64,000 bases of DNA from Candidatus Poseidoniales archaeon (GTDB taxonomy: Archaea; Thermoplasmatota; Poseidoniia; MGIII; CG-Epi1). The translations under genes were made by a program, and so were the position numbers. How positions within the stretch are numbered: position 1 is the first letter of the stretch; every line of letters begins with the position of its first letter. A model generated the notes under the pieces. That model was not told where the DNA came from. It searched no databases and saw only the letters and a program-made list of their open reading frames with translations. The stretch spans positions 2,680 through 66,679 of the forward strand of contig JBJLCC010000011.1 in NCBI GenBank assembly GCA_045567855.1. The letters run 5' to 3'. Shown piece by piece: positions 2,102 through 16,940 of this stretch.

Positions 2102-2103
2102 AA

Positions 2104-3090
2104 TTAGTTATATTTTTCTATCGCAACTTGTCCATATTTAGGTAACGGCTGTGCCCTTATGCCCAACTGTTTTTCGATTTGCTTTGCTAACTCCTTTGTT
2201 GAACCGTGCACCGTGTAAACTTGTTTAGGATTGCATTCTTCAACAAACTTCATTGTTCCACTAAAATCGGAATGATCGCTTATTGGAAATCCAGCATCTA
2301 CACTTCTCAACGCCCATTCTGAAAAAGCGCACCATCCAGAAACCCGTGCAGTTTTAGCACCTTTCTTCCTCATATTTTGCACAGCCTCATCTTTTTTCTT
2401 TCCATTGGCAGCAGTAGTCGAAGTTACCAGTAATTCAGTATTTTTTTGCTCATTTTCAGTTATTTCAGAATATCTATTGTATTCCAGATTAACGCCGTTA
2501 TTTTTGTATATATCACTAACAGAACCTACCACATCAGAAACTACAGGCGTTACACCACCCAAGTTGGCGGTTGCAATTACTTCCTGTGCTTTCCCTAGCG
2601 AGTAAGCTCCGATAATAGCTCCTTCTTTTGCAGATGTAGCCATTATCCATGCCTGTAAATCGCTAAGGACTTCTTTCCTGTCAGGTAGAACTTGGTCTGG
2701 TTTTCCATAAGTAGATTCAATGATTAAGGTATCACAATCCTGCGGTTTAGCAATCCCTGCGGTTACAGTCCCATACGGATTATAGTCTCCAGTATAGAGA
2801 ACACCTTCACATTCAATCATTGCAGAGCCTACAACATGTCCTGCCGAAAAAAACTCTAACTCAAAATCGTTTATCTTAAACTTTTCGTGAAGATTATGCG
2901 TGGTCGCCTCTTTATATCCTGTTCTAGCAATCATGACTTCTTTAGTAGGCTCAGTCATGTGAGTTTTTGGCCTTAGATGGTCAGAATGCCCATGACTTAC
3001 AGCTCCGTCTGGCCTTCCACTTGATGGATCGAGATAAATTGCTCTTTTATCTCTTTTAAGACATATGCCTTTGTAATCAAAAACTTCCAC
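2104..3090 (-). CDS. metallo-beta-lactamase fold, beta-CASP-like nuclease/hydrolase
   Basis: HGHSDH (HxHxDH) motif near the N-terminus and about 330 aa. The architecture resembles short archaeal/bacterial beta-CASP exonucleases. Confidence 0.7.
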   Translation of the reverse strand: MEVFDYKGICLKRDKRAIYLDPSSGRPDGAVSHGHSDHLRPKTHMTEPTKEVMIARTGYKEATTHNLHEKFKINDFELEFFSAGHVVGSAMIECEGVLYTGDYNPYGTVTAGIAKPQDCDTLIIESTYGKPDQVLPDRKEVLSDLQAWIMATSAKEGAIIGAYSLGKAQEVIATANLGGVTPVVSDVVGSVSDIYKNNGVNLEYNRYSEITENEQKNTELLVTSTTAANGKKKDEAVQNMRKKGAKTARVSGWCAFSEWALRSVDAGFPISDHSDFSGTMKFVEECNPKQVYTVHGSTKELAKQIEKQLGIRAQPLPKYGQVAIEKYN

Positions 3091-3614
3091 TAATTTACAC
3101 CTTTTAGGCTAAAAGAGTATCTTGCAGGTTCTCTCCATCGGTGTCCTGTTAAGTATCCACATAATTTACAATTAAAGCCAATAGCCACTTTTCCGCCGTA
3201 AAGTGTTGCATTATGAACTCTCTTCAATGGTGAGGTACAGACTGGGCATGGTTGTCCAGGAGATGCAAACTCACCTCTGTGATGCGTATGCCCACTTTGG
3301 TCTTCACCGGGCCGAATTCTTCTCCATCGTTTTACAACTGGATCGTATCCTAAGCCTTGTCTTCTGAAAGTATTTTCATCATTTTCAGGTCCAGCACCTA
3401 CAGAGCGTGTTCTTATTCCCAGTTTAATTTTTTTCGACTTAACGGCTACTACTCTCATCCTTTCAGCTGAAAGTTTGTATGTTTTATCTTCTTTTTTAAG
3501 GTGTACAATAACTAGTTTATGCATTTTAGTTTGAGTATCGATTGTTCCTCTATTTTTCAGAACGTTTATGACAGCTTCCACTATCACTTTTTTAGTAGGT
3601 TTTCGATACTCCAT
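3090..3614 (-). CDS. hypothetical basic protein with C-terminal zinc-ribbon (CPVC...CKLC)
   Basis: 174-aa ORF whose stop overlaps the start of the downstream MBL gene by 1 nt. It has a CPVCTSP...NCKLCGY four-Cys motif and a Lys/Arg-rich N-terminal half. Confidence 0.5.
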   Translation of the reverse strand: MEYRKPTKKVIVEAVINVLKNRGTIDTQTKMHKLVIVHLKKEDKTYKLSAERMRVVAVKSKKIKLGIRTRSVGAGPENDENTFRRQGLGYDPVVKRWRRIRPGEDQSGHTHHRGEFASPGQPCPVCTSPLKRVHNATLYGGKVAIGFNCKLCGYLTGHRWREPARYSFSLKGVN

Positions 3615-3695
3615 TAGTATCCCATCAGAACTGAATGTTAAAGCTTGTTGGAGCTATAGTAATTTTTATATTCCATTACAACAAAGGGTATACAA

Positions 3696-3701
3696 CCGGA
3701 G
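3696..3701 (+). promoter_or_regulatory. Shine-Dalgarno-like GGAGGT ahead of the ArsR-family gene
   Basis: ggaggt lies 6 nt upstream of the ATG at 3708, and a ttttatatt TATA-like element lies about 40 nt upstream. Confidence 0.4.
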
Positions 3702-3707
3702 GTTGAT

Positions 3708-4367
3708 ATGTCATTCGATGAAGTAGACGAATTATTTTATTTATTAGAAAACCCAACAAGGCGTAGAATTCTTCAATTGTTGTCGATAGAAAGACTATAT
3801 CCGTTGCAATTATCAAAGGAAATAGATGTGACTCAACAAGCAGTAGTAAAGCATTTAAGAATTTTAGAAGACCATGGATTAGTAAAATCAAGGGATGAAC
3901 CGAGTCGACGAGGTCCAAATAGAAGGGTTTACAAAGCATCTAGAGATGTTTCCTTACACATAGATATTGGCCCCTCAACTTATAAGCAAAAAGCCGAAAC
4001 TGACTTTGATGTTTCAGATTTATCAGATCAAAATCGCAGAGTCTTAGATGCAATTGCCGAATCAGAAAATATGGATTCAAGAGCTAGAATGGATCTCTTA
4101 TCGCGAGTCTCAGAAGATCTCAAACAGTCTATAGATGAGGTAGAGTCGGAAAGAAGAAGTCTAATGGCACTAATGGGTGAATTAAATAGAAAAATAATAT
4201 CTACAACTCAGGATGCAGATTGTACTTATCACGAAAGGAGATTATTACATCATATTCTTCATAACAGAGATTACACTATTGAAAGTGCAGCCGCATCATT
4301 AGGTCTTCGTGAGGCTGAAGTCAGAATAATATTAGAAAGTTTACAGCATAGAGGACTAACTCGCTAA
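3708..4367 (+). CDS. ArsR-family winged-helix transcriptional regulator with long helical C-terminal extension
   Basis: NPTRRRILQLLSIERLYPLQLSKEIDVTQQAVVKHLRILEDHGLV is a typical ArsR/SmtB HTH. The C-terminal half is charged and helical. Confidence 0.8.
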   Translation: MSFDEVDELFYLLENPTRRRILQLLSIERLYPLQLSKEIDVTQQAVVKHLRILEDHGLVKSRDEPSRRGPNRRVYKASRDVSLHIDIGPSTYKQKAETDFDVSDLSDQNRRVLDAIAESENMDSRARMDLLSRVSEDLKQSIDEVESERRSLMALMGELNRKIISTTQDADCTYHERRLLHHILHNRDYTIESAAASLGLREAEVRIILESLQHRGLTR

Positions 4368-4414
4368 TTATCCGCATATCTTATATAGAATGCTAAAATA
4401 ATATAATATCTAAG

Positions 4415-4945
4415 ATGGACGCTCTTCAGAAAAGTTTACTTGCAGTAGTTGCAATATCATTGTTCTTTCCTATCGCGCAAGCTGAGGACAAAATATATCG
4501 CGTTGAGGGCCTACCTGAAGATTTACACTATTTTACAGGGAAGTCTTACGAGGTTGTACTTACTGCAAATGATTATGCTTCAATTTCAGAAGTAAACATT
4601 AGTGTGACTAACGGGTCGTTAAGTTTGACAAATGAATTTGAGGCTGATGTATACAATTTAATTTTAGAATCGAGCGATGATGGTTGGACTTTTTTCTGGC
4701 AAGCTCCGGATCAATCTTTTAGTTTAGGAGAAGGTAATTCTTTAATGACTATAATTTTCACAGATACAGACGGTCAAGTATGGTCATCGTACGAGTCTAT
4801 GCTTAGATCGCCGGAAATAGTGTCCCACAGTACCTCAGGAGTTCCTGACTGGGCAAATTTATTAGCATGGTCTGGAGTTAGTGTTACAGTTTTATGCTCG
4901 GTTGCTGGTTCTTACGTTCTCAGAAGAGATAAAATTAAGCAATAA
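4415..4945 (+). CDS. secreted, C-terminally membrane-anchored hypothetical protein
   Basis: Sec-type signal peptide (LLAVVAISLFFPIAQA/ED), a C-terminal hydrophobic helix plus a basic tail (RRDKIKQ), and N-x-S/T sequons. Confidence 0.55.
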   Translation: MDALQKSLLAVVAISLFFPIAQAEDKIYRVEGLPEDLHYFTGKSYEVVLTANDYASISEVNISVTNGSLSLTNEFEADVYNLILESSDDGWTFFWQAPDQSFSLGEGNSLMTIIFTDTDGQVWSSYESMLRSPEIVSHSTSGVPDWANLLAWSGVSVTVLCSVAGSYVLRRDKIKQ

Positions 4946-4960
4946 TTTTTGTAACGTAAG

Positions 4961-4969
4961 GTATATATG
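4961..4969 (+). promoter_or_regulatory. TATA box of pilin gene
   Basis: gtatatatg is preceded by purines (aag). The expected transcription start is near 4990, giving a 5' UTR of about 25 nt that carries a GAGGA Shine-Dalgarno at 5004-5008. Confidence 0.45.
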
Positions 4970-4989
4970 CTCAGCCAACTGTCTATTTG

Positions 4990-5005
4990 TCTGACTTAGG
5001 TCAGA
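4990..5005 (+). promoter_or_regulatory. perfect 6-bp inverted repeat (TCTGAC-TTAG-GTCAGA) in pilin 5' leader, overlapping the SD
   Basis: Read directly from the sequence. The 3' arm overlaps the AGAGGA Shine-Dalgarno region. Confidence 0.35.
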
Positions 5006-5015
5006 GGACACAACA

Positions 5016-5519
5016 ATGCAAAGAAGAATTGTAAAAGATGAGCAGGCAGTATCTCCTGTAATTGCGGTTATTTTGATGGTCGCTATTACAGTGGTTTTGG
5101 CTGCAGTATTGTACGTTTGGGCTAGCAGTTTCCTTGGTGGTACAACCAAGAACGCACCAACCGGCAGTATGATAGCTAGCGAAGATGGAAGCGGTGTCTG
5201 GACGGTTCAGATCGTCAAGATTAACCCACAAGTTTCCGTAAACTCTGTACACTGGTACTTATTAGATGTACAAGGAAACACTAAGACTGATGGCTTAGTT
5301 TCTGATGTCTATGGATATTACTCTGGTCAGGGTAAAGCTGTAGTCTTCATTGACAACGACTTCAACGGCAAGTTGAGCCCAGGTGACAAATTTGAAGTTC
5401 ACCCAGGTGAAGCTGGTTCCGATTTGGAAAGTGTAAATGACGTAAGTGATTACTCCTTCCGTATGAAGTTCGAGCCTACTGGTGATGTAATCGGATACGA
5501 TATAGGTCTACAATCATAG
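5016..5519 (+). CDS. archaeal type IV pilin-like protein (class III signal peptide, Pilin_N/DUF1628 type)
   Basis: N-terminus MQRRIVKDEQAVSPVIAVILMVAITVVLAAVLYVW matches the archaeal pilin N-terminal consensus (..AVSPVIg.iLmvAITVvLAa..). The rest is a soluble beta-rich domain. Confidence 0.8.
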   Translation: MQRRIVKDEQAVSPVIAVILMVAITVVLAAVLYVWASSFLGGTTKNAPTGSMIASEDGSGVWTVQIVKINPQVSVNSVHWYLLDVQGNTKTDGLVSDVYGYYSGQGKAVVFIDNDFNGKLSPGDKFEVHPGEAGSDLESVNDVSDYSFRMKFEPTGDVIGYDIGLQS

Positions 5520-5604: not shown

Positions 5605-6784
5605 AATCTAACCAAGGCACACGTTGGATTGGTTTTGCACCTTCACATATCCCTTCCCTTACGCTTGCATTTGGTAGAAGAGATTTCACCACGTCTTCGA
5701 TTGTTTGATTTCTTGGTTTTTTACCAATTTCCAATCTCTCATCGTTAAGTATTGCATTTGGATATTTTTTTAGAAATTCAATTGCTCCGTTTTCCCAAGG
5801 AGCTGGGCCTTTGTGTGATACTATTTCGGGTAGTTTTCGCATTCCAGTTTCTATGACAATATAACCGTCATTCCCCATATTTGCATTCCATGCGATTGGT
5901 TCAAAGTCATGAAGCGCCCTATAGATTTTTCTTCCTTGTTTTTGTAACCATGGCATTACGGTTTCTTCATTTTCTCCTGGAAGCGATAAAATAATACTTG
6001 TCAAATTTCCTTGAAATTCTCTTTCTTTATACTTAGGGAAAAAGAAATTATTTGACGGCTCATCAAGAAATGATTTAGAAGCTAAAATAGCAGTTCCTAG
6101 TCCTTTCAAAGTTACTCCTGCAGCTACATTTCTTTTGTCATCGACAGGATCACAAATCATTATTGGAGATTCAGGAGTTTTCATTTTATCAATAATAATA
6201 GGAGGTCTCCACCGGGAAATTTCTTTAATTAGATTTAAGAATCCTCCGTATTTTATGCAAAGTATTTCTACTAAATAACCTGAAAACCCACCTACTGCGG
6301 AATTTGCACCGTAAGCTCCAACGGCCTTTAGGAACTGTTTTGTCAATCTTACTTCATTTTCTAACCCATTTATATTGGATATTACCCAATCAGTATGGAA
6401 TGGCGTTCTATCCACTGCAGATACAGATTCAGTAGAGTCTTCAATTGCAAAACAAGGTACTAGATCAATCCCCACACCATCTATTTCTCCTCTCAAATAG
6501 GGATGCTGTGCGTAGAGTTCCTTACCATTAGGTAGTATTTTCCTTGCTATAGCCAAACCTTCTTTTTTCAAATTAGCTCCCTTTTGAAATATTAAAAAAA
6601 TGTCAATGTCAGTTCCAGCTAGAAAAGTTCTTTTTGCAATTGATCCTACAACTTTAGCTTCAAAAGTTGACATTTCTAAAGCCTTTATTTTCTTAAGAAT
6701 ATTGTCCCTTAAACTTATTATTTTTTCTTTTTCTTCAAGTTTTGGTTGGACTTGCTCTAAGGCCTCAGCTATTATTTCTTTCAC
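5603..6784 (-). CDS. cca: CCA-adding tRNA nucleotidyltransferase (archaeal class I)
   Basis: GSIAKRTFLAGTDIDIFL nucleotidyltransferase motif (G[SG]..[DE]hD) and an archaeal-type domain order. The GTG start overlaps the upstream stop (GTGA). Confidence 0.8.
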   Translation of the reverse strand: MKEIIAEALEQVQPKLEEKEKIISLRDNILKKIKALEMSTFEAKVVGSIAKRTFLAGTDIDIFLIFQKGANLKKEGLAIARKILPNGKELYAQHPYLRGEIDGVGIDLVPCFAIEDSTESVSAVDRTPFHTDWVISNINGLENEVRLTKQFLKAVGAYGANSAVGGFSGYLVEILCIKYGGFLNLIKEISRWRPPIIIDKMKTPESPIMICDPVDDKRNVAAGVTLKGLGTAILASKSFLDEPSNNFFFPKYKEREFQGNLTSIILSLPGENEETVMPWLQKQGRKIYRALHDFEPIAWNANMGNDGYIVIETGMRKLPEIVSHKGPAPWENGAIEFLKKYPNAILNDERLEIGKKPRNQTIEDVVKSLLPNASVREGICEGAKPIQRVPWLD

Positions 6785-7284
6785 TCTTCTTCATCTGCAT
6801 GGTCGACTTTACCTTTACGCCATGCCTTTGTCCTTTCTTTTTCAGCCCTTTTTCTTAATGTTTCAATATCATCTTTAACAGGAAGAAAGATAGGAATAAT
6901 GAATATTATAAGTCCAAGAATTAATGCTAATATTCCCCATAATAAGTATTTTCCAGTTGTTATAGATTCTAAAAATAATGAGATAAGTATAAGAGACAAA
7001 ACAGTGGAAATCCAAATTATTTTTCTGAAAGCCTTTTCTGAAATAATATATTTATCCTTTTCTTCTAAAATTTCAACTGAAAATTCGGCATTTGGAATTT
7101 CAATCTCTTCTTCATTACTAACAGGCCTTTCCAGTTTTAATTTTCTTAAGTATAAATGACCTGCGATTCCAGATATTATGAAGGCAGCTTGCCCATATCC
7201 AGGATCGCCTGCTGCAGTTGCAGCCCAAACGGCATACAACATTGTTAGCCATATTGTAACTATTATTGCATTATACAAGTCCAT
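6781..7284 (-). CDS. hypothetical membrane protein (about 4 TM, charged C-terminal tail)
   Basis: Hydrophobic segments are visible and there are no conserved motifs. It lies between the flavodoxin-ferredoxin gene and cca in the same orientation. Confidence 0.5.
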   Translation of the reverse strand: MDLYNAIIVTIWLTMLYAVWAATAAGDPGYGQAAFIISGIAGHLYLRKLKLERPVSNEEEIEIPNAEFSVEILEEKDKYIISEKAFRKIIWISTVLSLILISLFLESITTGKYLLWGILALILGLIIFIIPIFLPVKDDIETLRKRAEKERTKAWRKGKVDHADEEE

Positions 7285-7297: not shown

Positions 7298-8287
7298 TTA
7301 GACTTTACTTTCCATGGTAATTGCTTCTACAGGGCAGGCGAAAGCACAGAGGGTACAACCTACACAAGTATCATCTAAAATCAATGCTTTTTTAGATTCG
7401 AATTGCGAGGTTCTTGCTTTCAAGTCCCAAGATATCATATCAATTGATGCAAAATTACAGTAGTAAACACATTGAGTACAACCTATGCATTTTTCGTTAT
7501 CTACTAAAGCAATGTAGTCTTTACCTTGGGGAAGAGATTTGAGAGTTATTTTTCTCAACTCTTTGAACATATCTTTAGCTTTTTCTATGCCTGTTGTAGG
7601 TAATTCATCGTCGTCAACAGCTTCTTTAACTCTTTTAAGCCATTTATTAGGTTTATGAAAGAAAAGGGATGCAGTTCCCATTGCTTGGTATGCAGAAGTT
7701 CCAGCATTTTCTTCTACAACAGTTTCGACTTCAGTATCTACTACGGCACCGGATGCATAAGAAGTCATACTTTCAACTAAATCAGCTTGGAAGTTTCCTT
7801 CATTATCAACGCTAGCTAATTTTGACATCGTACCATTCATCCATTGTTCAGCCGGTTCTTCAAAATCTACATCACAATCAACTCTATCATGGATTCTAGT
7901 ACCTCCCATATCTTCCATGGTTTTATCCCAATCTATTCCGGACTGACAAAATAAATCGTAACCTGTATCTCCGAGTGCACAAATTGAAAAATGAGTGTTA
8001 GTTAATATTTTACCAACACCAACTGCAGCTTCGTACAGTTCTTCAGCATTGTCAGGCATTTCTCCTTCTCCCCATGTGGAGCATACAATCATCACTCTGG
8101 ACATTCCAGACATTGAATTAATGTCAAAGCCATCCATGTCATGAACTGTAGGATTTAGTCCGTATTTTTTAGCTTCTTTTTGCCATTTTTCAGCTAAGCC
8201 TTCAGAATTTCCACTCTGAGAGCCGTACAATATATGTAAATCTCGATTTCCTTCAGTAGCGAATGCAGTAATATCCACATCAGACAC
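7298..8287 (-). CDS. flavodoxin (FMN) domain fused to 2x[4Fe-4S] ferredoxin domain
   Basis: N-terminal ILYGSQSGNSEGLAEK...CSTWGEGEMPDN resembles the CysJ/CPR-type FMN domain. The C-terminus carries CIGCTQCVYYC and CVGCTLCAFACP cluster motifs. GTG start, TAGTG overlap with the upstream gene. Confidence 0.8.
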   Translation of the reverse strand: MSDVDITAFATEGNRDLHILYGSQSGNSEGLAEKWQKEAKKYGLNPTVHDMDGFDINSMSGMSRVMIVCSTWGEGEMPDNAEELYEAAVGVGKILTNTHFSICALGDTGYDLFCQSGIDWDKTMEDMGGTRIHDRVDCDVDFEEPAEQWMNGTMSKLASVDNEGNFQADLVESMTSYASGAVVDTEVETVVEENAGTSAYQAMGTASLFFHKPNKWLKRVKEAVDDDELPTTGIEKAKDMFKELRKITLKSLPQGKDYIALVDNEKCIGCTQCVYYCNFASIDMISWDLKARTSQFESKKALILDDTCVGCTLCAFACPVEAITMESKV

Positions 8288-9183
8288 TACTTCTTATCCT
8301 CCAAGCATGCAACTAAAAATTGCATTAAGTCCATCATTTCATAATCGTGATGATGGCCCTCTTCAGGATTCATACGTTCCTCATTAAGCATGCATTGCAT
8401 ATGCATGTAACATTTAGGACATCCTCCGAGCATTATGTCTATACCTGCATCTGTACCTTGGTCAAGCCTTTTTCTTCGCACAGCTTTTGTAGCATCATTA
8501 CAATACATCATTGAAGAAACTCCACAACAAAGGGCTCTTTCTTTGTTATTTTCAAGTTCGACCATTGTAGCTCCATCTACTAATTGTATTAAATCACGAG
8601 GAGCCTCATATTCACCCATCATTCTACCGAGGCGGCAGGGGTCGTGGTAAGATACAGTTACATTTTCAGGTGCCTTAAATTTCAAACCTCTTCCTTGTAA
8701 CGTTTGAGTAATGTGTTCAACTTTAATTCCAAGTTTACCAGGTAAATCATAGTCCACAGCAAAGGTACGATAGCATTCAGCACATGAGCATGTTATAATT
8801 TTTACTCCGGATTCTTTTAGTCTTCTCATATTGTGCTCTTTTAGAGCATCAAAGACTTCTAGATTCCCTTGCCATAATTGGTCATGTCCTGAACATTTAA
8901 AGACGTTCATATCTAAAATTAGCGGATCAATATCGGCATAATTTAGCAATTTGATTGAGGCTGCAGCAATTGAGGCGTGATCTGCATCTCCTTTATTCAA
9001 GTGAGTAAATTTGACCTCTACATCCATAAAATCTACACAGCCTGGGAAGTAACCATATTCATGATATCTTTCAGGTTTCCACTCCTGTTTCTCTTCATTC
9101 ATTGCGTCTTCCACAATCAATCTTTCGAAAAGAGGATGTGGAATAGTTCTAGCGTATGGCTTTTGTCTCGTTTCATCTGTCAT
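8287..9183 (-). CDS. CCG (cysteine-rich) domain protein, HdrB/GlcF/SdhE/LutA-like
   Basis: Two cysteine-rich repeats: FPGC...KCSG...CSCAEC and HDPCRLGR...LCCGVSS...GGCPKC. No signal peptide or TM helix. Confidence 0.75.
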   Translation of the reverse strand: MTDETRQKPYARTIPHPLFERLIVEDAMNEEKQEWKPERYHEYGYFPGCVDFMDVEVKFTHLNKGDADHASIAAASIKLLNYADIDPLILDMNVFKCSGHDQLWQGNLEVFDALKEHNMRRLKESGVKIITCSCAECYRTFAVDYDLPGKLGIKVEHITQTLQGRGLKFKAPENVTVSYHDPCRLGRMMGEYEAPRDLIQLVDGATMVELENNKERALCCGVSSMMYCNDATKAVRRKRLDQGTDAGIDIMLGGCPKCYMHMQCMLNEERMNPEEGHHHDYEMMDLMQFLVACLEDKK

Positions 9184-10309
9184 ATGCTACACCTCCTATT
9201 GGAGAGCTACCACTGCCTGGTAAATCTAGAGTATTTCCCTCTGCAGTTGCTCCAAGTGTAGCTAAAAGTCTTTGTTCTAGTACATAATCAACATATTCAA
9301 TGTTCTGTGGGCAAACTGCAGTACACATACCACAAGAAATGCATGACCAAAGAGCAACTCCATCGTGTTTATTTTGGAAAGTATTAAAAATAATATTTAA
9401 TTCATGTTCTCCTTCCATATCTCTTACGGGACAAATATCATCACAAAGTCCACATTGATAGCACCGGTTTAATTTGAATTCATAAATGCGTTGCATTCGC
9501 CGGTCTTGAATACCATTTGTGTAAAGATCGAACCTTTCTTCATCACTTAGCGGTTTGGCACCTTCAGATCTTCTTCTATCAAGGAATAGATAAGTTATCA
9601 AAGCGCAAGCGATAGGGCCCCACAAAGTAAGCGCATAGAGTAAGTCGGTGGTAACTTCAGGATAGTACAGTGCTATGTTTGCATTAATTGAAAAAACAGA
9701 CAGCATAATTACCATTGCTATACCATAAACGCCGATTGCAGCTCTAACTGGATCTTCTATGGGTCTTCGTTCATGCCCTCTATTGATTACGTCTCCATAT
9801 TGAGGGTCAATAACTGCACCCAATGCTCTGTCGATAAATGGAACTGCAACAACTAGTCCAACAATAAGTCCTTGAACTAAAGTACCCCAAACTTTTGCAC
9901 TCATTAAAAATAGCTCTATATCATCTAAGCCTAAGAAAGGAATCATAGAAAGAGGTAGCCCTATTTTCAAATCAGTAGCAACTTTTAGACATCCAAAAGC
10001 CCACAACAAATACCAATCAGGTAGTGGAGGTGGATAGGCAGTACCAGCAGTAGGATCAGCAGACTCGTGTAATGGAGGTGGAATGAATGCTCCCAAATAA
10101 AACATAATTGAAAGGACATAGAATGTGTAAACAGTATCTCTTGATAATTCGTGAGGATAAAGAGGCTCACCTTTTACGAGGCTCGCTTCTAGAACAGAGT
10201 GTTCTTCACGATTATCTAGTTTTCTTATTGTATCAAGTTCTTGTTGTTCCTGTATAGACTCGCCTATCATTTCTGTAGCATCATCTTCTAGTATATTTTC
10301 TTGGCTCAT
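9173..10309 (-). CDS. cytochrome b C-terminal domain/subunit IV-like membrane protein fused to C-terminal 2x[4Fe-4S] (HdrC-like) domain
   Basis: PEWY-like motif LPDWYLLWAFG follows the first TM helix, with several more TM helices, then DRRRSEG and CYQCGLCDDICPV plus CISCGMCTAVCPQN. TAATG overlap with the cytochrome b gene. Confidence 0.75.
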   Translation of the reverse strand: MSQENILEDDATEMIGESIQEQQELDTIRKLDNREEHSVLEASLVKGEPLYPHELSRDTVYTFYVLSIMFYLGAFIPPPLHESADPTAGTAYPPPLPDWYLLWAFGCLKVATDLKIGLPLSMIPFLGLDDIELFLMSAKVWGTLVQGLIVGLVVAVPFIDRALGAVIDPQYGDVINRGHERRPIEDPVRAAIGVYGIAMVIMLSVFSINANIALYYPEVTTDLLYALTLWGPIACALITYLFLDRRRSEGAKPLSDEERFDLYTNGIQDRRMQRIYEFKLNRCYQCGLCDDICPVRDMEGEHELNIIFNTFQNKHDGVALWSCISCGMCTAVCPQNIEYVDYVLEQRLLATLGATAEGNTLDLPGSGSSPIGGVAYDR

Positions 10310-11286
10310 TAGTGAGGTTCAGCCTCCCCTTGGATCCATACTAATGCCATATGAATTATCATAAGAACTGTACCTACTAAAGGAAGCACAAAAATATGAA
10401 GCCAGTACATTCTTGTTACAGTATCTGCAGTAACTTGCGTTCCTCCAAATACGATTTGAGCCATCAATGGCCCCATTGCAGGTATAGAAGTGGCCATTTC
10501 AAGGCCAATTGCAGCAGCCGCATATCCGAGTGCATCCCATGGCAATAGATATCCAGTGTAACCAAAGAAAATAGTTACAAGTAATAGTATGACTCCTAGG
10601 ATCCAGTTAACTTCTCTTGGATTCCTATAAGCACCTACAAAGTAAACTCTCATCATGTGTAAAAATACTGCTGCAACCATGAAGTGTGCAGCCCAATGAT
10701 GTATAGCTCGCATTATGTATCCAAAAGCTACTTTTGTCATTATGAGTTCCATAGATTGATACGATCCCGATGTGGCATGACCGTCCTCATCAAAAGTTAT
10801 TTCACCATCTGGTACATAGTAGAATCCAAGATAAATTCCGGTTATAACTAAGATAATGTATGCAAAAAATGAAAGTCCTCCTAAGGAATAGAATGGATAC
10901 CAATACCAAACAGATTTCACATTGTATCTTTCAGTATGAGACTGCGGCATTGTCCTCCCACTTGAAGGTAGAAGTGTGAAAACAACTGAATAATATTCTC
11001 GTTTGGCAAGAGAAGTATATCTGTGTAATGCAAATCTTTCATCAAACCAGTTCCACGTTGCCAATAAGACTCGTGGAAGAGTTCCAGAAACGTACAAATA
11101 TCCTACAGTCAATACAGCCATTAACAGTTGAAGGAAAATCAATGGGAAAGTATACTTTCTCATTAGTTCTTCAATTATAGGGGCGTCACCTGCTGCACTT
11201 ACAGGCAGTGCAAAGAAAGTAATACTTCCTAATAGTGAAGCAAAAAGTAGTTTTATTTTCATCCTTGTCCGCAATATTTGAGCCAT
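10309..11286 (-). CDS. cytochrome b (N-terminal, di-haem domain) with extra N-terminal TM helices
   Basis: IHHWAAHFMVAAVFLH (H-x13-H) and HIFVLPLVGTVLMIIH (H-x14-H), plus YRNPREVNWILGV...GYTGYLLPWD. The alternative start at 11262 (MKIK...) forms an ATGA overlap with the Rieske stop and may be the true start. Confidence 0.85.
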   Translation of the reverse strand: MAQILRTRMKIKLLFASLLGSITFFALPVSAAGDAPIIEELMRKYTFPLIFLQLLMAVLTVGYLYVSGTLPRVLLATWNWFDERFALHRYTSLAKREYYSVVFTLLPSSGRTMPQSHTERYNVKSVWYWYPFYSLGGLSFFAYIILVITGIYLGFYYVPDGEITFDEDGHATSGSYQSMELIMTKVAFGYIMRAIHHWAAHFMVAAVFLHMMRVYFVGAYRNPREVNWILGVILLLVTIFFGYTGYLLPWDALGYAAAAIGLEMATSIPAMGPLMAQIVFGGTQVTADTVTRMYWLHIFVLPLVGTVLMIIHMALVWIQGEAEPH

Positions 11287-11945
11287 TCAATTTGAGTCAT
11301 TAGCCCAACTAAACCTCCATCTTTTTCTTCTATAGGTACCACAGGAAGACCATAAGGGGCAGGCCCTTCTAATAATTCTGCAGCCATAACTTCACGGCCT
11401 TGTTCGTCAACATTTTTAATAACAGATAGTGGATCGAACAATGATAAATGGCATGGACATAAGAACATATTTTCATAGTCATTTCCACTGATAGTACTTG
11501 TTCCTTCAGCGCTAAATACAGGTTTACAGCATAAATGAGGACATTTGTATGTATGGTATGCCATGAGATATGCATTACCATCATCTACACTCACTCCCAG
11601 TCCGTTCATTGATGGTTCAGCAGGAACTTTGGCTAAAGCTAATTGTATTTCACATGCTCCTAATTCTTGTTCTAAATCTTTTGGAGCCCAATTGACAATT
11701 GCTACATCCCAAAGATTAAAATCCTCTTTTTTAGCGACACTTCCACCCATGTTTTCATACCATTTCCCGCTTTCAGATTTATAAGTTAAGGTCTCGTGGG
11801 CATCATCATCATTACATCTAGTAACTGGCGGTGGGAGTAATGTTTTAAGTGCAGGAACTGCAAGAGCTGTAGTCATTCCAGCTCCAGCCAATCCTATAGC
11901 GCCTTGTAAGAATCCTCTTCGTGTTATATTCATATCATCTTTCAA
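11259..11945 (-). CDS. Rieske [2Fe-2S] protein with twin-arginine signal
   Basis: Tat motif TRRGFLQGAIGLAGAG and the cluster boxes CPHLCC and CPCHLSLFD. Confidence 0.85.
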   Translation of the reverse strand: MKDDMNITRRGFLQGAIGLAGAGMTTALAVPALKTLLPPPVTRCNDDDAHETLTYKSESGKWYENMGGSVAKKEDFNLWDVAIVNWAPKDLEQELGACEIQLALAKVPAEPSMNGLGVSVDDGNAYLMAYHTYKCPHLCCKPVFSAEGTSTISGNDYENMFLCPCHLSLFDPLSVIKNVDEQGREVMAAELLEGPAPYGLPVVPIEEKDGGLVGLMTQIEWLKYCGQG

Positions 11946-12228
11946 GTTTTGTTATAACCTTACTCCTCCTCTTTTTTAGTTCCAAAACATCAGGCAAAAA
12001 TGATCTTCTGTAGAAATCAATCATTAACCCCATTATCAGAAATGCCATAGCAATTGTAAACGAAAGAAATTGTTGATCCCATCCCTCTAATATTCCATAT
12101 ATGAATAGGGAGTCATACATTATTTCCAATACTAATAAAACAAGGACAATTGCAAAAATTTCACCTTGTTCTTTACCTGGAGTCTCACGTACAACTTTTC
12201 CTAGGTCCTCGTCTTTATAAGTTCCCAA
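11935..12228 (-). CDS. small 2-TM membrane protein (start uncertain; TTG)
   Basis: Two hydrophobic helices. The only canonical start is TTG at 12228, but the frame stays open and protein-like for 30 codons upstream. Confidence 0.5.
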   Translation of the reverse strand: MGTYKDEDLGKVVRETPGKEQGEIFAIVLVLLVLEIMYDSLFIYGILEGWDQQFLSFTIAMAFLIMGLMIDFYRRSFLPDVLELKKRRSKVITKLER

Positions 12229-12286: not shown

Positions 12287-12982
12287 TTAACCTCGGTAAT
12301 GGGAACTACCTCCTCTAATTACAACATATGCCAACAATATCATCACAAATACCACAGCTATCGCGAGTAATGCTATCCAGTACTGCATTAAACTTACGCC
12401 CAGTTCATGTATAGATGCTTCCTCTGATTTTACCTGAGGAGTTCCAATAGATACGGCTGTAATATATCCCCATTGATCTCCACCAGTTCCAGCCCCATTA
12501 ACGACATTATAATAAATTGTGAATAAAGAATCACCGCTACCATCGCTCGGAGCAGTCCATTGGAAAGTCCAGTTTCGTTGACCATTACTGTCAGCATTAT
12601 GTGAAATATATTTTCCTTCCCCACCTATCCAATAAAGTGCATCAGTCTGAAAAGCTCCTTCACTTACTTCAGCTAAAAAACCACCATACCGAATGGCTTC
12701 AGGTTCGGAGATTACGCTAGTATCGTTTATTACAAGTGAAATATTGTAGGCAGTATCTGGTTCATATTTAGATGGAATTCCTTCTAGCATGTACATACCT
12801 TGATCAAGTTGTTCGTCCATGTGGCAGGAGCAGCCATTAGCAATGCTATCTTCAGCCCAATCCTCACCGGCCCCTTGCTGAGCACCTCCTGCAGGGTAAC
12901 CATCGACGCTCATACCGACAGATATGACTGTAATCAATAAAATTGCTAATAGTGCGTAGGTTTCTTTTTGATTCGTAGCCAA
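12287..12982 (-). CDS. extracytoplasmic, C-terminally membrane-anchored protein of unknown function (first gene of Rieske/cyt b array)
   Basis: N-terminal signal/anchor, a beta-rich domain with a CSCH motif, and a C-terminal TM helix (WIALLAIAVVFVMILLAYVVI). TTG start preceded by a GGGGAG Shine-Dalgarno-like element. Confidence 0.6.
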   Translation of the reverse strand: MATNQKETYALLAILLITVISVGMSVDGYPAGGAQQGAGEDWAEDSIANGCSCHMDEQLDQGMYMLEGIPSKYEPDTAYNISLVINDTSVISEPEAIRYGGFLAEVSEGAFQTDALYWIGGEGKYISHNADSNGQRNWTFQWTAPSDGSGDSLFTIYYNVVNGAGTGGDQWGYITAVSIGTPQVKSEEASIHELGVSLMQYWIALLAIAVVFVMILLAYVVIRGGSSHYRG

Positions 12983-13123: not shown

Positions 13124-14710
13124 ATGAAAGACGTCAGATTAAGTAAGCTAATGGGCTTAGTTTTGTTAGGTCTTTTAACACTGTTATTTCGCTTTCCAGT
13201 TACAGATTCACCTACCGATTCAGATAATTTTTTTTATGCTACAACTGTAAAATCAGTATTAAGTGATGGTCAAATCTTTTGGGCCGAGCATATTTTTTCA
13301 TTCTATGGTTTGTATCCAGGGACTACTCCATTAGGAGGCACGATATTAGCAACATCAATAGTACAAATAACAGGCATATCTATTCATCATTATCAATTAT
13401 TTCATAGTATCTTCCTATCGTTAATTTCTACTTTTGGTTTTTTTTTATTATCGGGTGAGCTAACTTCAAATTATAAGAGTCGTTGGATTTCATCTTTAGC
13501 ATTTTTAGTTGTGCCTAAGTTTGTATTCCTTAATATTTGGAGATTTTCTTTACGTTTTTTGCTTATTGCATTTCTTACTTTTTTCTTTTGGGCAATTCTC
13601 AGATTTATGAATGAACAATACAATCGCAGTTCTAGAAAAATGTTGTTATTGTTAGTGGTGTTTACAATAACTCTTCCATCATTACATAGAATGGGGTTAT
13701 TATTTCCTGGATTTTTATTATCCTTTCTTTTAGCTTTTTTGTTTTGGAATTGGCAGGAAAAAGCGTTGAATCGAGAGCGCGCAGGAAGGCAAATCTTCTT
13801 TGTATTAACGCTCTTAGCTTCTTACTTTTTTTACCTCAGTTATCTTGATTTTTCACCTTATTCGCCAGATAAAAAATTATTTGCAGTTTACTATTTAAAT
13901 GAGGGTGGTTTTTTTTCGACTATAATTAATTTAGGTTTTTACTATCTAATAAATACAGGCCCTATCATATCATTATCTTTGGTGGGTTTTATATTTTGGA
14001 TTCAAGAGGGCAGAGTCCCCTTTGGCTACATGTTTTTTATGTCCTCAATTTCTCTAGCTACCATATTAATTTTAGATTTGATTTACATTTCTTACTTGGT
14101 TACATTTATGATAATAGTATTTGTAATTCCAGGTATGGATTTTTTCATTGATAATCTCAAAGATTATAGAATACGTTTTCGAGTTTTTTTTGTGTCTATA
14201 CTAATACTTACAGTCTCGTTTTCCAGTATGAATTTATTCTATAGATTAGACGAGAAAGAGAATGAGAATTATAGTTATACCTACAATGTTAGTGAGGCTA
14301 GCATATCTACAGGTTTGTGGTTAGGTGAAAATTTTTATTCTGAAATTATAGAATCGAATGATAGGAATAGGGAGAGACGAGTCGTAGCTTACAGCGATTC
14401 AGTAAGTCAATCAGACTTAACTGAATTATCTTCAGGTAAAATTATTTTATCAGATATGGAGATTTCGCGAATATCAGTTGTCGATTTTTACTGGGAAAGT
14501 GAGGATCATCTCTGGAAATGGAATAATGCAGCAAATCAATCGGCCTTAGAGTCCAATGTATCGATTGTAAATCTTGCAATGTCTAATTTTACCGGCCAGG
14601 CATCTACTAATACTTTAATTGTAAGTAACTATTACAAAAGTATGCCGTATTATAATTTTAATGTGTATCGTAATGAAGAGCTTGCAGTTTATTGGACAAA
14701 TAATTATTGA
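13124..14710 (+). CDS. large polytopic membrane protein, possible GT-C-type glycosyltransferase
   Basis: More than 10 predicted TM helices followed by a soluble domain of about 170 aa that contains sequons. No AglB WWDYG motif was seen, so the function is uncertain. Confidence 0.5.
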   Translation: MKDVRLSKLMGLVLLGLLTLLFRFPVTDSPTDSDNFFYATTVKSVLSDGQIFWAEHIFSFYGLYPGTTPLGGTILATSIVQITGISIHHYQLFHSIFLSLISTFGFFLLSGELTSNYKSRWISSLAFLVVPKFVFLNIWRFSLRFLLIAFLTFFFWAILRFMNEQYNRSSRKMLLLLVVFTITLPSLHRMGLLFPGFLLSFLLAFLFWNWQEKALNRERAGRQIFFVLTLLASYFFYLSYLDFSPYSPDKKLFAVYYLNEGGFFSTIINLGFYYLINTGPIISLSLVGFIFWIQEGRVPFGYMFFMSSISLATILILDLIYISYLVTFMIIVFVIPGMDFFIDNLKDYRIRFRVFFVSILILTVSFSSMNLFYRLDEKENENYSYTYNVSEASISTGLWLGENFYSEIIESNDRNRERRVVAYSDSVSQSDLTELSSGKIILSDMEISRISVVDFYWESEDHLWKWNNAANQSALESNVSIVNLAMSNFTGQASTNTLIVSNYYKSMPYYNFNVYRNEELAVYWTNNY

Positions 14711-14774
14711 AATATGCTAATGTTTTTATACAGGCCCGACTGGCGCAGTGTCCTTATTAGGAGTTAAAAAGAAA

Positions 14775-15227
14775 ATGGCACGAATGCATGCAAGACGTAA
14801 AGGTCGCTCAGGTTCTAGTCCACAGACTAGGAAAGAAAACCCTAAATGGTCACCAAAGGCCAAAGACGTAGAAAAGCTAATCCTTGAATTATATTCAGAA
14901 GGTAAATCGTCATCCGAAATAGGAATCATTTTAAGAGATATGCATGGAGTTCCTAGCGTAAAATTAGCAACAGGTAAATCAATAACTTCAGTCTTGTTAG
15001 ACGGAGGTTCTTCTTCTTCACTTCCAGAAGATTTAACAAATCTTATGAGAAAAGCAGTTCGTTTAGGCGAGCATTTAAAATTAAATAAGAAAGATATTCA
15101 CAATACACGTTCTTTGAGGTTAACAGAAGCTAAAATACTTCGTTTAGTGAAATACTATCGATCGACTAAGGTGTTGTCTGATGACTGGAAATATTCATTG
15201 AATGAAGCTAAGCTTTTAGTAGGATAG
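14775..15227 (+). CDS. rps15: 30S ribosomal protein uS15 (S15P/S13e)
   Basis: MARMHARRKGRSGSSPQTRKENPKWS is the archaeal/eukaryotic S15P/S13e N-terminus. The ATG at 14775 is preferred over the ORF-track start at 14748. Confidence 0.85.
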   Translation: MARMHARRKGRSGSSPQTRKENPKWSPKAKDVEKLILELYSEGKSSSEIGIILRDMHGVPSVKLATGKSITSVLLDGGSSSSLPEDLTNLMRKAVRLGEHLKLNKKDIHNTRSLRLTEAKILRLVKYYRSTKVLSDDWKYSLNEAKLLVG

Positions 15228-15237
15228 TAGCAATTTA

Positions 15238-15981
15238 ATGGCCGATTGGTGCCTATTAGTAATAGATAATGAATCACATTTGGTAAATCTTGATTTAAAA
15301 ATTATTAATATAAAAAATTTTGGCAGTTTCCCTTCAGATTTTCTAAAAAAACAAAAATTAGGCATTGAGTTTGATTTTTTTAATGAAAGAGGGAAATTAA
15401 TTCCATACAATTTATCAGATATTCAAAGCAATTTAGTACGTGGACCTCAAATAATATCGCCCAAAGACATTGCTTGGCTCATTTATAGTTCAGATGTCAA
15501 GTCAAATGATACAATTGTAGAAGCTGGCGGTGGATCAGGGGCACTTACAACTGCCTTAGCTCAAGCTTCTTTTCCAAATGGTAAAGTTATTACTTTTGAA
15601 AAAAATAAGAAGCATTACGAAATAGTAAAAAGAAATCTCATCTTAAGTCCATATTCAAGTCAAGTAGAATTAAGAAACGAAGAGTTAAATGAGAGAAGTA
15701 GCCCCATACCTTGTAATTCGATACTCTTAGATTTACCTGATCCTCAAAAACTAATTAAATGGGCTGAAAAGTCTTTAATCTTGGGGGGCAAACTATTGAG
15801 TTATATTCCAACAGTCAATCAGGTTGAGACGTTATTATCTTCATTAGATGATTGGGGAGAAGTGGAGATTAGTGAGATGATGCATAGAACTTGGCAACCA
15901 AAGTTAGGTGCGATACGACCCAATACAAATATTTTAGGGCACACTGGCTTTATTTTATCAGCTAGATTATTGAATAAGTAG
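15238..15981 (+). CDS. trmI: tRNA (adenine-N1)-methyltransferase (TrmI/Gcd14 family)
   Basis: SAM motif IVEAGGGSGALTTALAQ, LLDLPDP, and a C-terminal HTGFI motif typical of the m1A58 methyltransferase family. Confidence 0.7.
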   Translation: MADWCLLVIDNESHLVNLDLKIINIKNFGSFPSDFLKKQKLGIEFDFFNERGKLIPYNLSDIQSNLVRGPQIISPKDIAWLIYSSDVKSNDTIVEAGGGSGALTTALAQASFPNGKVITFEKNKKHYEIVKRNLILSPYSSQVELRNEELNERSSPIPCNSILLDLPDPQKLIKWAEKSLILGGKLLSYIPTVNQVETLLSSLDDWGEVEISEMMHRTWQPKLGAIRPNTNILGHTGFILSARLLNK

Positions 15982-16013
15982 ATATCTATTTTACTAGTCG
16001 CCTTCATATACTT

Positions 16014-16940
16014 TTGATGTCATCTATAGAGGAAGTAATTATCATAGGTTCAGGTCCAGCAGGCTATACTGCAGGCTTGTATACTGGAAGAGCAATGCTT
16101 AAACCTAAATTGTTCGCAGGTTTTGCAAGTGGTGGGCAACTAATGCTGACTAGCGATGTAGAAAATTTCCCAGGATATCCTGAAGGTATAAGTGGCCCTG
16201 AAATGATGATGGAATTGAGAGCTCAAGCAGCAAGATTTGGTTGCGATATTGTTGATAAAAATGTAGATTCGATTGATACTAGCTCTCATCCGTTTAAAGT
16301 CAATGTAGGTAAAGAACAATTTTTAACAGAATCAATAATTATTACAACAGGTGCAGAGGCAATATGGCTAGATGCAGCTAATGAAGAGAAGCACAAAGGA
16401 CAAGGAATATCTACCTGTGCCACATGTGACGGTGCATTTTTCAGAAATAAAGAAGTTATAGTAGTTGGAGGCGGAGACTCAGCCATGGAGGAAGCTACTT
16501 TCCTTACTAGATTTTGCAGTAAAGTCACCATTGTTAACAGAAGAGAAGAACTAAGAGCTTCACAAATTATGGCAGATAGAGCCCGAGATAATGATAAGAT
16601 CGAATGGAAATTAAATCGAGTTGTAAAGGAGTGGGTAGGTGAGCAAGGAAATTTCGAAGGAGTTATTCTTGTAGACACTATATCAGGTGAAGAAGAATTA
16701 CTCAAATGTGACGGAGCATTCATAGCTATAGGACACAAGCCTATGACAAATTTCCTAGGAGATCAGATTGAGTTGGATGATCATGGCTACATAGTTCCTA
16801 AAGAAAATACTATGACAAATGTTTCTGGAGTATTCGCAGCAGGGGACGTAGTTGATACGAGGTATCGCCAGGCAATTACTGCAGCAGGTATGGGATGTAT
16901 GGCAGCTATTGATGCTGAAAAATGGTTAGAAGAGAATTAG
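16014..16940 (+). CDS. trxB: thioredoxin-disulfide reductase
   Basis: IIIGSGPAGYTAG FAD motif, redox-active CATCDG, VVGGGDSAMEEA NADPH motif, and FAAGDV. Confidence 0.9.
   Translation: MMSSIEEVIIIGSGPAGYTAGLYTGRAMLKPKLFAGFASGGQLMLTSDVENFPGYPEGISGPEMMMELRAQAARFGCDIVDKNVDSIDTSSHPFKVNVGKEQFLTESIIITTGAEAIWLDAANEEKHKGQGISTCATCDGAFFRNKEVIVVGGGDSAMEEATFLTRFCSKVTIVNRREELRASQIMADRARDNDKIEWKLNRVVKEWVGEQGNFEGVILVDTISGEEELLKCDGAFIAIGHKPMTNFLGDQIELDDHGYIVPKENTMTNVSGVFAAGDVVDTRYRQAITAAGMGCMAAIDAEKWLEEN

Follow-up and report, generated by a model that had tools for sequence, protein, structure and literature searches.

A C-terminal half of cytochrome b fused to a putative iron-sulfur wire in marine archaea

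Introduction

Rieske/cyt b complexes are usually seen as closed Q-cycle machines, whose n-side exchanges electrons only with quinone. An open reading frame (ORF) in a marine group II/III archaeon (Thermoplasmatota) appeared to join the C-terminal membrane half of cytochrome b to a 2x[4Fe-4S] domain, raising the question of whether such a fusion is real and, if so, what a Rieske/cyt b complex would do with iron-sulfur clusters tethered to its cytoplasmic side. We analyzed the window, i.e., the whole stretch of 64,000 nucleotides of DNA carrying this ORF, and compared it with its relatives. A sequence-only reading had proposed a covalent link between the Rieske/cyt b and Hdr-like parts, with two cubane clusters on the N-side next to the haem bH/Qi region. 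The core of this reading was supported, although several of its details required correction.

Results

The ORF was confirmed as an ATG-initiated frame of 378 aa, which lies on the minus strand; the plus strand is full of stop codons. The operon around it was resolved into the following features.

12287..12982, minus strand: 231-aa extracytoplasmic protein with an N-terminal hydrophobic segment and a C-terminal TM anchor ('choice-of-anchor V' domain), a candidate p-side partner; in relatives the position is taken by c-type cytochromes or a cupredoxin.
11935..12228, minus strand: DUF7318 small membrane protein, which sits upstream of the Rieske gene in nearly all archaeal relatives where that region was recovered, fused or not.
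11259..11945, minus strand: Rieske [2Fe-2S] protein with a Tat signal (CPHLCC ... CPCHLS).
10309..11286, minus strand: cytochrome b N-terminal half (b6-like, 325 aa) with all four heme-ligand His conserved; the heme-ci position reads FYSLGG (Cys replaced by Ser). Its stop codon overlaps the ATG of the fusion by 1 nt.
9173..10309, minus strand: the fusion gene (378 aa), C-terminal half of a split cytochrome b (helices E-H) plus a cytoplasmic 2x[4Fe-4S] domain.
9581..10177, minus strand: membrane domain of the fusion (residues 45-243), with the conserved n-side motif GEPLYPHELSRD, helix E (58-80), the ef loop with PDWY, and helices F (139-161), G (189-210) and H (223-243).
10010..10021, minus strand: Qo-site motif PDWY (residues 97-100), invariant in all fusion families.
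9473..9580, minus strand: basic cytoplasmic linker (residues 244-279, 9 K+R) between helix H and the Fe-S domain.
9269..9472, minus strand: HdrC/HdrD-type dicluster domain (residues 280-347), in which Cys283/286/289/293 and Cys323/326/329/333 are all invariant.
8287..9183, minus strand: HdrB/EtfD-like protein with two CCG domains (298 aa), the first motif being KCSGHD and the second LCCG. Its start overlaps the end of the fusion by 11 nt, behind a GGAGGTG Shine-Dalgarno sequence.
7298..8287, minus strand: flavodoxin-like FMN domain (CysJ/CPR type) plus a 2x[4Fe-4S] ferredoxin domain (329 aa), the probable distal cytoplasmic end of the wire; the ferredoxin part is conserved in distant operons.
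6781..7284, minus strand: 167-aa membrane protein closing the operon, with no family match; it is conserved in the nine marine loci whose sequence extends that far.

The motifs on which the fusion was first recognized were all present: PPLPDWYLLWAFGCLK at residues 94-109, DRRRSEGAK at residues 244-252, CYQCGLCDDICPV at 283-295 and CISCGMCTAVCPQN at 323-336. The Fe-S domain passed Pfam thresholds, with Fer4_8 at 40.6 bits against a 27-bit cut-off, plus Fer4_7/9/10/17. It also matched HdrC (7bkb_C, E 1e-5) in a profile search and TIGR03290 at 3.5e-8. Meanwhile, the cytochrome b C-terminal assignment was weaker for the single sequence, as PF00032 scored E 0.09 and 13.4 bits against a 20.7-bit cut-off. 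This assignment was supported by three other results. A 14-sequence profile hit the C-terminal half of actinobacterial QcrB (9wcx_i residues 301-414, E 4e-7), aligned from PDWY through helices F, G and H; NCBIfam bc1_QcrB_actin gave a partial hit (E 5.6e-8), far below its full-length cut-off; and distant homologues of the same fusion, including protein clusters P0121, P0124, P0125 and P0137, passed PF00032 on their own. In addition, the neighboring N-terminal half aligned to cyt b6 at E 1e-40.

Next, we assessed whether the fusion could be a product of chance or assembly. The same fusion was found in 128 protein clusters at 60% identity or more, the closest of which holds 560 member sequences, and in more than 30 independent archaeal genomes, always in a Rieske/cyt b operon. 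Fifteen marine MAG/SAG loci, from single-cell and metagenome genomes of many studies, showed an identical gene order, and the junction and all eight Cys are invariant down to 30% identity. The operon order DUF7318, Rieske, cytbN, fusion, CCG, Fer4 protein is kept from 96% down to about 30% identity. That is, the fusion is not an assembly artefact.

We then examined on which side of the membrane the Fe-S domain lies. Kyte-Doolittle hydropathy gave four TM helices (58-80, 139-161, 189-210 and 223-243), and the AF2 model placed helices at 52-73, 138-167, 187-213 and 221-250, although the TM part of the model had only pLDDT 50-70. Three helices follow PDWY. The sequence-only reading had stated that an odd number of helices between the PDWY loop and the Fe-S domain would place the domain outside; this rule was inverted, as PDWY lies on the p-side and an odd number of helices after it therefore puts the C-terminus inside. 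Using hydropathy segments read against alignment anchors, the number of helices between PDWY and the first Cys motif was odd (3, 5 or 7) in all 16 proteins examined, which represent about ten architectures; every insertion adds an even number. K+R counts fit the positive-inside pattern, with 5/3/9 in n-side segments against 2/0 in p-side loops, and the CCG and flavodoxin-ferredoxin partners have no signal peptide or TM segment. The description 'subunit IV-like' was loose, because b6f subunit IV (PetD) has three helices (E, F, G) and a p-side C-terminus, whereas this protein has four helices, as in the haloarchaeal split cyt b (PMC3509893), and a cytoplasmic C-terminus.

To assess whether the Rieske/cyt b and Hdr-like parts belong together, we searched for chains combining them. 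Many Thermoplasmata carry one chain with cyt b-C, Fer4 and two CCG domains, and 36 such natural triple fusions (PF00032 + Fer4 + PF02754) were found, showing that the fusion of the window and the downstream, translationally coupled CCG gene form an HdrD/EtfD-like unit. The CCG protein of the window is 44% identical to the C-terminal part of one of them (P0130, E 1e-79). In the window, however, the CCG domains are not in the same chain as the dicluster domain as they are in HdrD and EtfD, but in the next, overlapping gene. An AF2 model of the window fusion concatenated to the CCG protein (pTM 0.63) had Mycobacterium smegmatis EtfD (PDB 9ojn) as its best PDB match (E 1e-13 over 670 columns), and EtfD was also the best sequence match of the CCG protein (E 2e-15). 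In EtfD, the path runs from CCG clusters through two cubanes to heme b, about 7 A from the proximal cluster, and then to menaquinone (PMC13083937).

The first CCG motif differs between the window and most of its relatives. It is KCSGHD in the window and in 13 related loci, with CTG in one more, such that it is CSG or CTG in 14 of the 15 closest marine loci; one locus (L014) keeps CCG. The second motif, LCCG, is intact. In contrast, most relatives keep both CCG motifs intact (35 of 38 triple fusions); the state of the first motif in the soil Thermoplasmata group (loci L024-L038) is not reported. The first motif of EtfD is CTG, which gives a non-catalytic linear [3Fe-4S] cluster, whereas in Hdr both non-cubane clusters are needed for homolytic disulfide cleavage (PMC13083937). 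The Hdr-like module of the window's clade is therefore more EtfD-like, a non-catalytic wire, than a true heterodisulfide reductase.

On a cyt b tree, the fused lineages clustered together. The CxGG heme-ci motif is present in every fused lineage outside the window clade, as YC[LF]GG, and absent from every non-fused relative. In the window clade, the Cys is Ser; the heme-ci argument for an n-side heme link does not apply directly there. The Qi pocket also differs from both bc1 and b6f, as Trp replaces His/Arg five residues after the last heme ligand. The cytoplasmic partners vary among relatives, comprising poly-Fer4 + MvhD/FlpD, HdrCBA-like + FlpD, or an FAD oxidoreductase. We also scanned the window genes in 1-5519 and 13124-28607 for ETF, oxidase or ferredoxin-generating enzymes; only housekeeping, pilus and unrelated genes were found in these regions.

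Discussion

The ORF thus encodes helices E-H of a split, b6-like cytochrome b in an archaeal Rieske/cyt b complex, with an HdrC/HdrD-type 2x[4Fe-4S] domain fused to the cytoplasmic end of helix H. We infer that the module docks on the n-side of cytochrome b and would form an electron wire from FMN through 2x[4Fe-4S], CCG clusters and 2x[4Fe-4S] to heme bH (plus heme ci in relatives) and then the Qi quinone. The placement next to heme bH/Qi, as in the sequence-only reading, is inferred rather than shown, and rests on analogy with EtfD. We postulate that electrons most likely flow inward, although no result fixes the direction and we consider this about as likely as not. Reduced cytoplasmic one-electron carriers (the built-in flavodoxin/ferredoxin subunit, fed by catabolic oxidoreductases) would inject electrons at heme bH/Qi, where quinone would be reduced, as EtfD does in mycobacteria. 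This also matches the route proposed for ferredoxin to heme cn in b6f cyclic flow (PMC5600118). The quinol would then be oxidised at Qo of the same complex through the Rieske protein; i.e., one machine would be both a quinone reductase and a quinol oxidase. HdrD-like modules in aerobes (EtfD, GlpC, GlcF, LutA) generally appear to feed electrons toward quinone, and marine group II/III archaea are probably aerobic heterotrophs. However, the intact CCG motifs of most relatives, and the link of some to HdrA-like/MvhD modules, also fit outward flow or disulfide chemistry.

An output (bifurcation) model is possible but less likely. In this model, quinol oxidation at Qo sends one electron to the Rieske/high-potential chain and the other through hemes bL and bH into the Fe-S wire, which reduces a cytoplasmic low-potential acceptor; i.e., the flavodoxin/ferredoxin subunit in the window, or NAD(P)+/ferredoxin via HdrA-like modules in relatives. 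The low-potential branch of the Q cycle would then be tapped for reducing power. The architecture is the same as for inward flow, and the HdrA-like flavoproteins and MvhD/FlpD next to the fusion in relatives are hallmarks of bifurcating or confurcating systems. Anammox Rieske/cyt b complexes with extra subunits have been proposed to generate NAD(P)H (PMC12954380), and electrons in QmoABC and DsrMK probably flow from quinol through heme b to cytoplasmic HdrC/D-like Fe-S proteins. However, aerobic heterotrophs such as marine group II/III archaea would be expected to produce rather than lack reduced ferredoxin, draining heme bH would short-circuit the Q cycle, and EtfD, an HdrD-like module with a degenerate CCG motif, works toward quinone.

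A membrane-bound disulfide reductase (HdrDE/DsrMK-like), in which the CCG protein would reduce a cytoplasmic disulfide or oxidise a thiol with electrons exchanged with the quinone pool through cytochrome b, is unlikely. The CCG protein matches TfrB (E 5e-25), DsrK and HdrB, its predicted fold is like that of HdrB, and JGI names some triple fusions 'heterodisulfide reductase subunit D'. However, in addition to the degenerate first motif of the window's clade, independent changes to S, T and V show that this Cys is dispensable. An extra ferredoxin/flavodoxin subunit downstream would be unnecessary for a terminal disulfide reductase, and a CoM/CoB-type substrate would not be expected in these aerobes. 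Finally, a chimeric ORF or an extracytoplasmic Fe-S domain has no support beyond the weak single-sequence PF00032 score and is contradicted by the conservation and helix counts described above.

No description of this fusion was found in the literature searched, and the nearest precedents were the bacterial PDWF-FeS clade and the anammox proposals. Mycobacterial EtfD (Rv0338c/MSMEG homologue) and archaeal HdrDE have, as here, a membrane b-heme domain followed by a 2x[4Fe-4S] domain and two CCG domains on the cytoplasmic side, and in EtfD the wire ends at a heme next to a quinone site. Here, the membrane partner is not the 5-helix HdrE/NarI-type cytochrome but the C-terminal half of a bc-type cytochrome b with a Qo motif, working with a Rieske protein; the module is split into two genes, His583 of EtfD is Glu (CAEC), and a flavodoxin-ferredoxin subunit is added. 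The haloarchaeal 'halocyanin-Rieske/cytb' complex (Baymann et al. 2012, PMC3509893) shares the split 4+4-helix cytochrome b, the PDWY motif and the gene order Rieske, cyt b-N, cyt b-C, and we observed the DUF7318 gene upstream in haloarchaeal loci. These complexes are the sister group on the cyt b tree; however, they have no Fe-S domain, no CCG or ferredoxin genes and no CxGG motif. Cytochrome b6f and Firmicute bc complexes (cyt b6 + subunit IV, heme ci/cn) are split at the same place and have the b6-type His spacing in helix D seen in the cyt b-N half, but no Fe-S domain is tethered in b6f.

In the PDWF-FeS clade (Kao & Hunte 2014, PMC4122944), a bc-type cytochrome b that keeps a Qo-like motif is fused to a 4Fe-4S domain and an MvhD domain, which is precedent for cyt b recruited to Hdr/Mvh-type modules. 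Those are unsplit bacterial proteins reported in only a few species, with no Rieske protein in the cluster and no CCG domains, whereas the window has a split cyt b with PDWY, a Rieske gene and no MvhD. QmoC of sulfate reducers (HdrC-HdrE fusion) combines an HdrC-like dicluster domain with a b-heme membrane domain in a single chain and works with HdrA-like subunits; however, the domain order is opposite, the membrane domain is NarI/HdrE-type, and NCBIfam qmoC (NF038018) scored 22 bits against a 300-bit cut-off.

With an attached wire and interchangeable cytoplasmic adaptors, electrons could enter or leave complex III directly from soluble carriers. Inward flow would give marine group II/III archaea a previously unrecognised way to feed ferredoxin/flavodoxin (or ETF-type) electrons into respiration, whereas outward flow would be a new way to make low-potential reductant from quinol. 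More speculatively, the fused lineages may be a distinct, single-origin subfamily of Rieske/cyt b complexes, carried by some of the most abundant archaea of the surface and deep ocean, in which the quinone-based bifurcating enzyme is physically wired at its n-side heme pair (bH/ci) to ferredoxin-, flavodoxin-, MvhD- and HdrA-type modules. If so, it would be the first natural case of a ferredoxin-like domain tethered at the Qi/heme-ci face and a tractable model for the disputed ferredoxin to heme cn route of cyclic electron flow; in relatives with HdrA, it might couple Q-cycle and flavin-based bifurcation in one complex.

Current annotations of the gene are inconsistent or misleading, comprising 'PreA subunit', 'ferredoxin', 'Fe-S oxidoreductase' and 'cytochrome b/c subunit'. 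One related locus (L043), which matched the fusion up to residue 289, encodes a non-fused 294-aa protein ending in a relic of the junction.

Organization of the operon containing the fusion gene

The ORF at 9173-10309, which was noticed in the sequence-only reading, is real, but it lies on the minus strand (378 aa, ATG start). All of the motifs noted in that reading are present in the protein; i.e., PPLPDWYLLWAFGCLK at residues 94-109, DRRRSEGAK at residues 244-252, CYQCGLCDDICPV at residues 283-295 and CISCGMCTAVCPQN at residues 323-336. The ORF is the fifth gene of a tightly packed minus-strand operon in a marine group II/III archaeon (Thermoplasmatota) with about 37% GC.

Genes of the operon, in order of transcription
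12982-12287, minus strand, 231-aa anchored extracytoplasmic protein
12228-11935, minus strand, DUF7318
11945-11259, minus strand, Tat-dependent Rieske protein
11286-10309, minus strand, b6-like cytochrome b N-terminal half (cyt b-N)
10309-9173, minus strand, the fusion
9183-8287, minus strand, two-CCG-domain protein
8287-7298, minus strand, flavodoxin + 2x[4Fe-4S] protein (Fld-Fer4)
7284-6781, minus strand, 167-aa membrane protein

The stop codon of cyt b-N overlaps the ATG of the fusion by one base, and the CCG gene starts 11 nt inside the 3' end of the fusion, behind a GGAGGTG sequence. The genes are therefore translationally coupled.

The 231-aa protein that opens the operon has an N-terminal hydrophobic segment, a C-terminal TM anchor and a 'choice-of-anchor V' domain (E 2e-18), with weak Reeler similarity, and it contains an odd CSCH motif. 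At this position, relatives encode multiheme or monoheme c-type cytochromes (loci L016, with CKTCH, L082/L083 and L087) or carry a cupredoxin fused to cyt b-N (locus L085). This protein may be the p-side electron acceptor of the Rieske protein. The DUF7318 small membrane protein precedes the Rieske gene in nearly all archaeal relatives in which that region was recovered (loci L016-L048 and L081-L087), fused or not, and is absent from the bacterial relatives; it is probably an uncharacterized subunit of this archaeal Rieske/cyt b type. The 167-aa membrane protein that closes the operon has no family match and is conserved in the nine marine loci that extend that far, whereas distant operons (L081, L084, L085, L086) end with unrelated small (72-91 aa) proteins at the same position. 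This protein may be a membrane tether for the peripheral module.

Domain identity and distribution of the fusion

The C-terminal 2x[4Fe-4S] domain passes several Pfam dicluster models and resembles HdrC (7bkb_C, E 1e-5; TIGR03290, E 3.5e-8). The membrane part is too divergent for PF00032 of Pfam as a single sequence (13.4 against 20.7 bits). However, a profile of 14 homologues aligned it with the C-terminal half of actinobacterial QcrB, from PDWY through helices F, G and H (E 4e-7), and more distant members of the same fusion family pass PF00032 directly. The upstream cyt b-N aligns with cytochrome b6 at E 1e-40; all four heme-ligand histidines are kept, and helix D has the b6-type spacing. 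In Thermoplasmata relatives (L081, L084 and L086, with cyt b-N genes of about 870 aa, and L085), cyt b-N carries large N-terminal extracytoplasmic domains (Big_5 repeats, or a cupredoxin), whereas the cyt b-N of the window has only a roughly 120-aa N-terminal extension with hydrophobic segments.

Next, we assessed whether the fusion could be an artefact. The same fusion was found in 128 protein clusters at 60-96% identity, and the nearest cluster stands for 560 sequences. In addition, it was found in 15 marine MAG/SAG loci, one of which is a marine group III single-cell genome and others of which are labelled Poseidoniia. A tblastn of nine window genes (the eight operon genes plus the flanking CCA-adding enzyme) against these loci showed an identical gene order. 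An artefact is thus essentially excluded.

Predicted topology of the membrane domain

Hydropathy analysis gave four helices at 58-80, 139-161, 189-210 and 223-243, with a moderately hydrophobic ef loop between the first two, and the AF2 model gave the same helices. K+R counts followed the positive-inside rule; the n-side segments contained 5 (N-terminus), 3 (FG loop, plus flanking R161 and R189) and 9 (post-H linker), whereas the p-side loops contained 2 (ef loop) and 0 (GH loop). PDWY lies on the p-side; therefore, the three helices after it put the C-terminus in the cytoplasm. The sequence-only reading had held that an odd number of helices would place the domain outside, which is inverted.

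Natural variants supplied a stronger test. We examined 16 proteins from about ten architectures of this fusion and counted the helices between PDWY and the first Cys motif. Most have 3 helices. P0131, a protein of this family, has two extra helices before helix F, giving 5, and the Thalassarchaeaceae-type P0127 has two extra helices flanking a roughly 250-aa hydrophilic insertion, also giving 5. The soil Thermoplasmata type (P0124, P0126, P0128, P0129) has four extra helices, giving 7. That is, the count is always odd, and every insertion adds an even number. There are also lineage-specific extracytoplasmic insertions; P0116 has a 27-aa two-Cys insertion in the G-H loop, and the hydrophilic domain of the MGIIb-type proteins (P0127 and those of loci L039 and L041, Thalassarchaeaceae) lies between helix H and the Fe-S domain. 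The CCG and Fld-Fer4 partners have no signal peptide or TM segment.

Association with the CCG-domain protein and variable partners

An exhaustive profile search and a second homology search found 36 or more proteins of 543-798 aa, each of which carries cyt b-C, the dicluster domain and two CCG domains in one chain according to Pfam. The separate CCG protein of the window is 44% identical to the C-terminal part of one of these triple fusions (E 1e-79). This 'Rosetta-stone' fusion shows that the fusion and the CCG protein of the window act together as an HdrD-like unit anchored to cytochrome b.

In distant operons, the next gene varies. It encodes a 2x[4Fe-4S] protein in soil Thermoplasmata and a roughly 510-aa poly-ferredoxin with an MvhD/FlpD domain in L081, L084 and L086. 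In L085, the position is taken by an FAD oxidoreductase, a Fer4 protein and FlpD, and in L083 by HdrC-like, HdrB-like and 1010-aa HdrA-like proteins plus FlpD. An LUD_dom + Fer4 + CCG protein (LutB/LdhH-like, about 660 aa), which is a second HdrD-like module, lies a few genes downstream of the triple-fusion operon in three Thermoplasmata loci (L081 14218-16215; L084 12981-14939; L086 13582-15576).

Similarity of the predicted structure to EtfD

We modelled an artificial concatenation of the fusion and the CCG protein of the window with a 47-sequence alignment, which resulted in a pTM of 0.63 and a pLDDT of 80-93 in the CCG part. The best PDB match of the model was M. smegmatis EtfD (9ojn, E 1e-13 over 670 columns), followed by LutA and HdrB. 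EtfD is a five-helix b-heme protein fused to two cubane clusters and two CCG domains; it forms a wire from ETF to menaquinone, with the proximal cubane about 7 A from the heme (PMC13083937). The first CCG motif of EtfD is CTG, which yields a non-catalytic linear [3Fe-4S] cluster shielded from solvent, and the authors read this as an adaptation to aerobic life. The window and 13 related loci have CSG at this motif, and one more has CTG; by contrast, 35 of 38 Thermoplasmata triple fusions keep CCG. For the clade of the window, this argues for a wire rather than a disulfide reductase.

Relationship between the fusion and the heme ci motif

In cyt b-N, the position of the b6f Cys that binds heme ci/cn (CxGG) reads FYSLGG in the window. 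It reads YC[LF]GG in every fused lineage outside the clade of the window, and no non-fused relative has the Cys. Compared with loci L012, L014 and L016-L047, the clade of the window shows three derived changes together; i.e., the heme-ci Cys is Ser, the first CCG motif is CSG or CTG, and the downstream ferredoxin carries a flavodoxin domain, which several sister lineages lack or have diverged (L006, L007, L009, L011 and L014, with hits only from about residue 185).

On a neighbour-joining tree of cyt b-N, computed without bootstrap support, the fused, CxGG-bearing lineages clustered together, with only one non-fused Hydrothermarchaeota sequence nested among them. The cluster is sister to the non-fused DUF7318-type complexes of haloarchaea and other Thermoplasmatota, which correspond to the haloarchaeal split 4+4-helix cytochrome b described by Baymann et al. 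(PMC3509893). The non-fused cyt b-C proteins of L043 (7914-8795) and P0133 end in '...FKLNRNYYRVR' and '...YETDLNRRFYIIRRST', respectively, which resemble the fusion junction 'YEFKLNRCYQC' with the cysteines lost. These ends are apparent relics and suggest secondary loss of the Fe-S domain; L043 also lacks the CxGG Cys.

Possible direction of electron flow

We inferred that the Fe-S module docks at the n-side face of cytochrome b and exchanges electrons with heme bH, and with heme ci where it is present. The direction of flow cannot be read from sequence. We favor inward flow as an explanation about as likely as not. This preference rests on the whole-module match to EtfD, the degenerate first CCG motif, the presumably aerobic heterotrophic lifestyle of these archaea and the parallel with the proposed ferredoxin to heme cn route in b6f (PMC5600118). 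Outward flow, in which the low-potential branch of Qo bifurcation reduces a cytoplasmic acceptor, is the main alternative and remains possible, although we consider it less likely. It draws on the HdrA/MvhD partners in relatives, on the Qmo and DsrMK precedents and on the NAD(P)H-generating proposal for anammox complexes (PMC12954380). A true disulfide reductase is unlikely for the clade of the window.

We found no description of this fusion in the literature searched. The nearest precedent is the bacterial 'PDWF-FeS' clade of Kao & Hunte, which has an unsplit cyt b fused to 4Fe-4S and MvhD domains and has no Rieske protein (PMC4122944). Public annotations are inconsistent ('PreA subunit', 'ferredoxin', 'Fe-S oxidoreductase', 'HdrD', 'cytochrome b/c subunit'). 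The modules themselves are known, whereas their combination is new; it is widespread in very abundant marine archaea and bears on open questions about n-side electron entry into bc/b6f complexes.

Other genes in the window

A pair of adjacent genes at 26709-27831 (plus strand) carries 2OG-Fe(II) oxygenase and Ofd1 C-terminal-like domains. This domain pair resembles eukaryotic ribosomal prolyl hydroxylases, which seems unusual for an archaeon. Archaeal type IV pilus genes, encoding a pilin with Pilin_N, a PilB-like ATPase and two T2SSF membrane proteins, lie at 5016-5519 and 18489-22929 (plus strand), and a thioredoxin-reductase-like flavoprotein lies at 16014-16940; none of these is linked to the operon.
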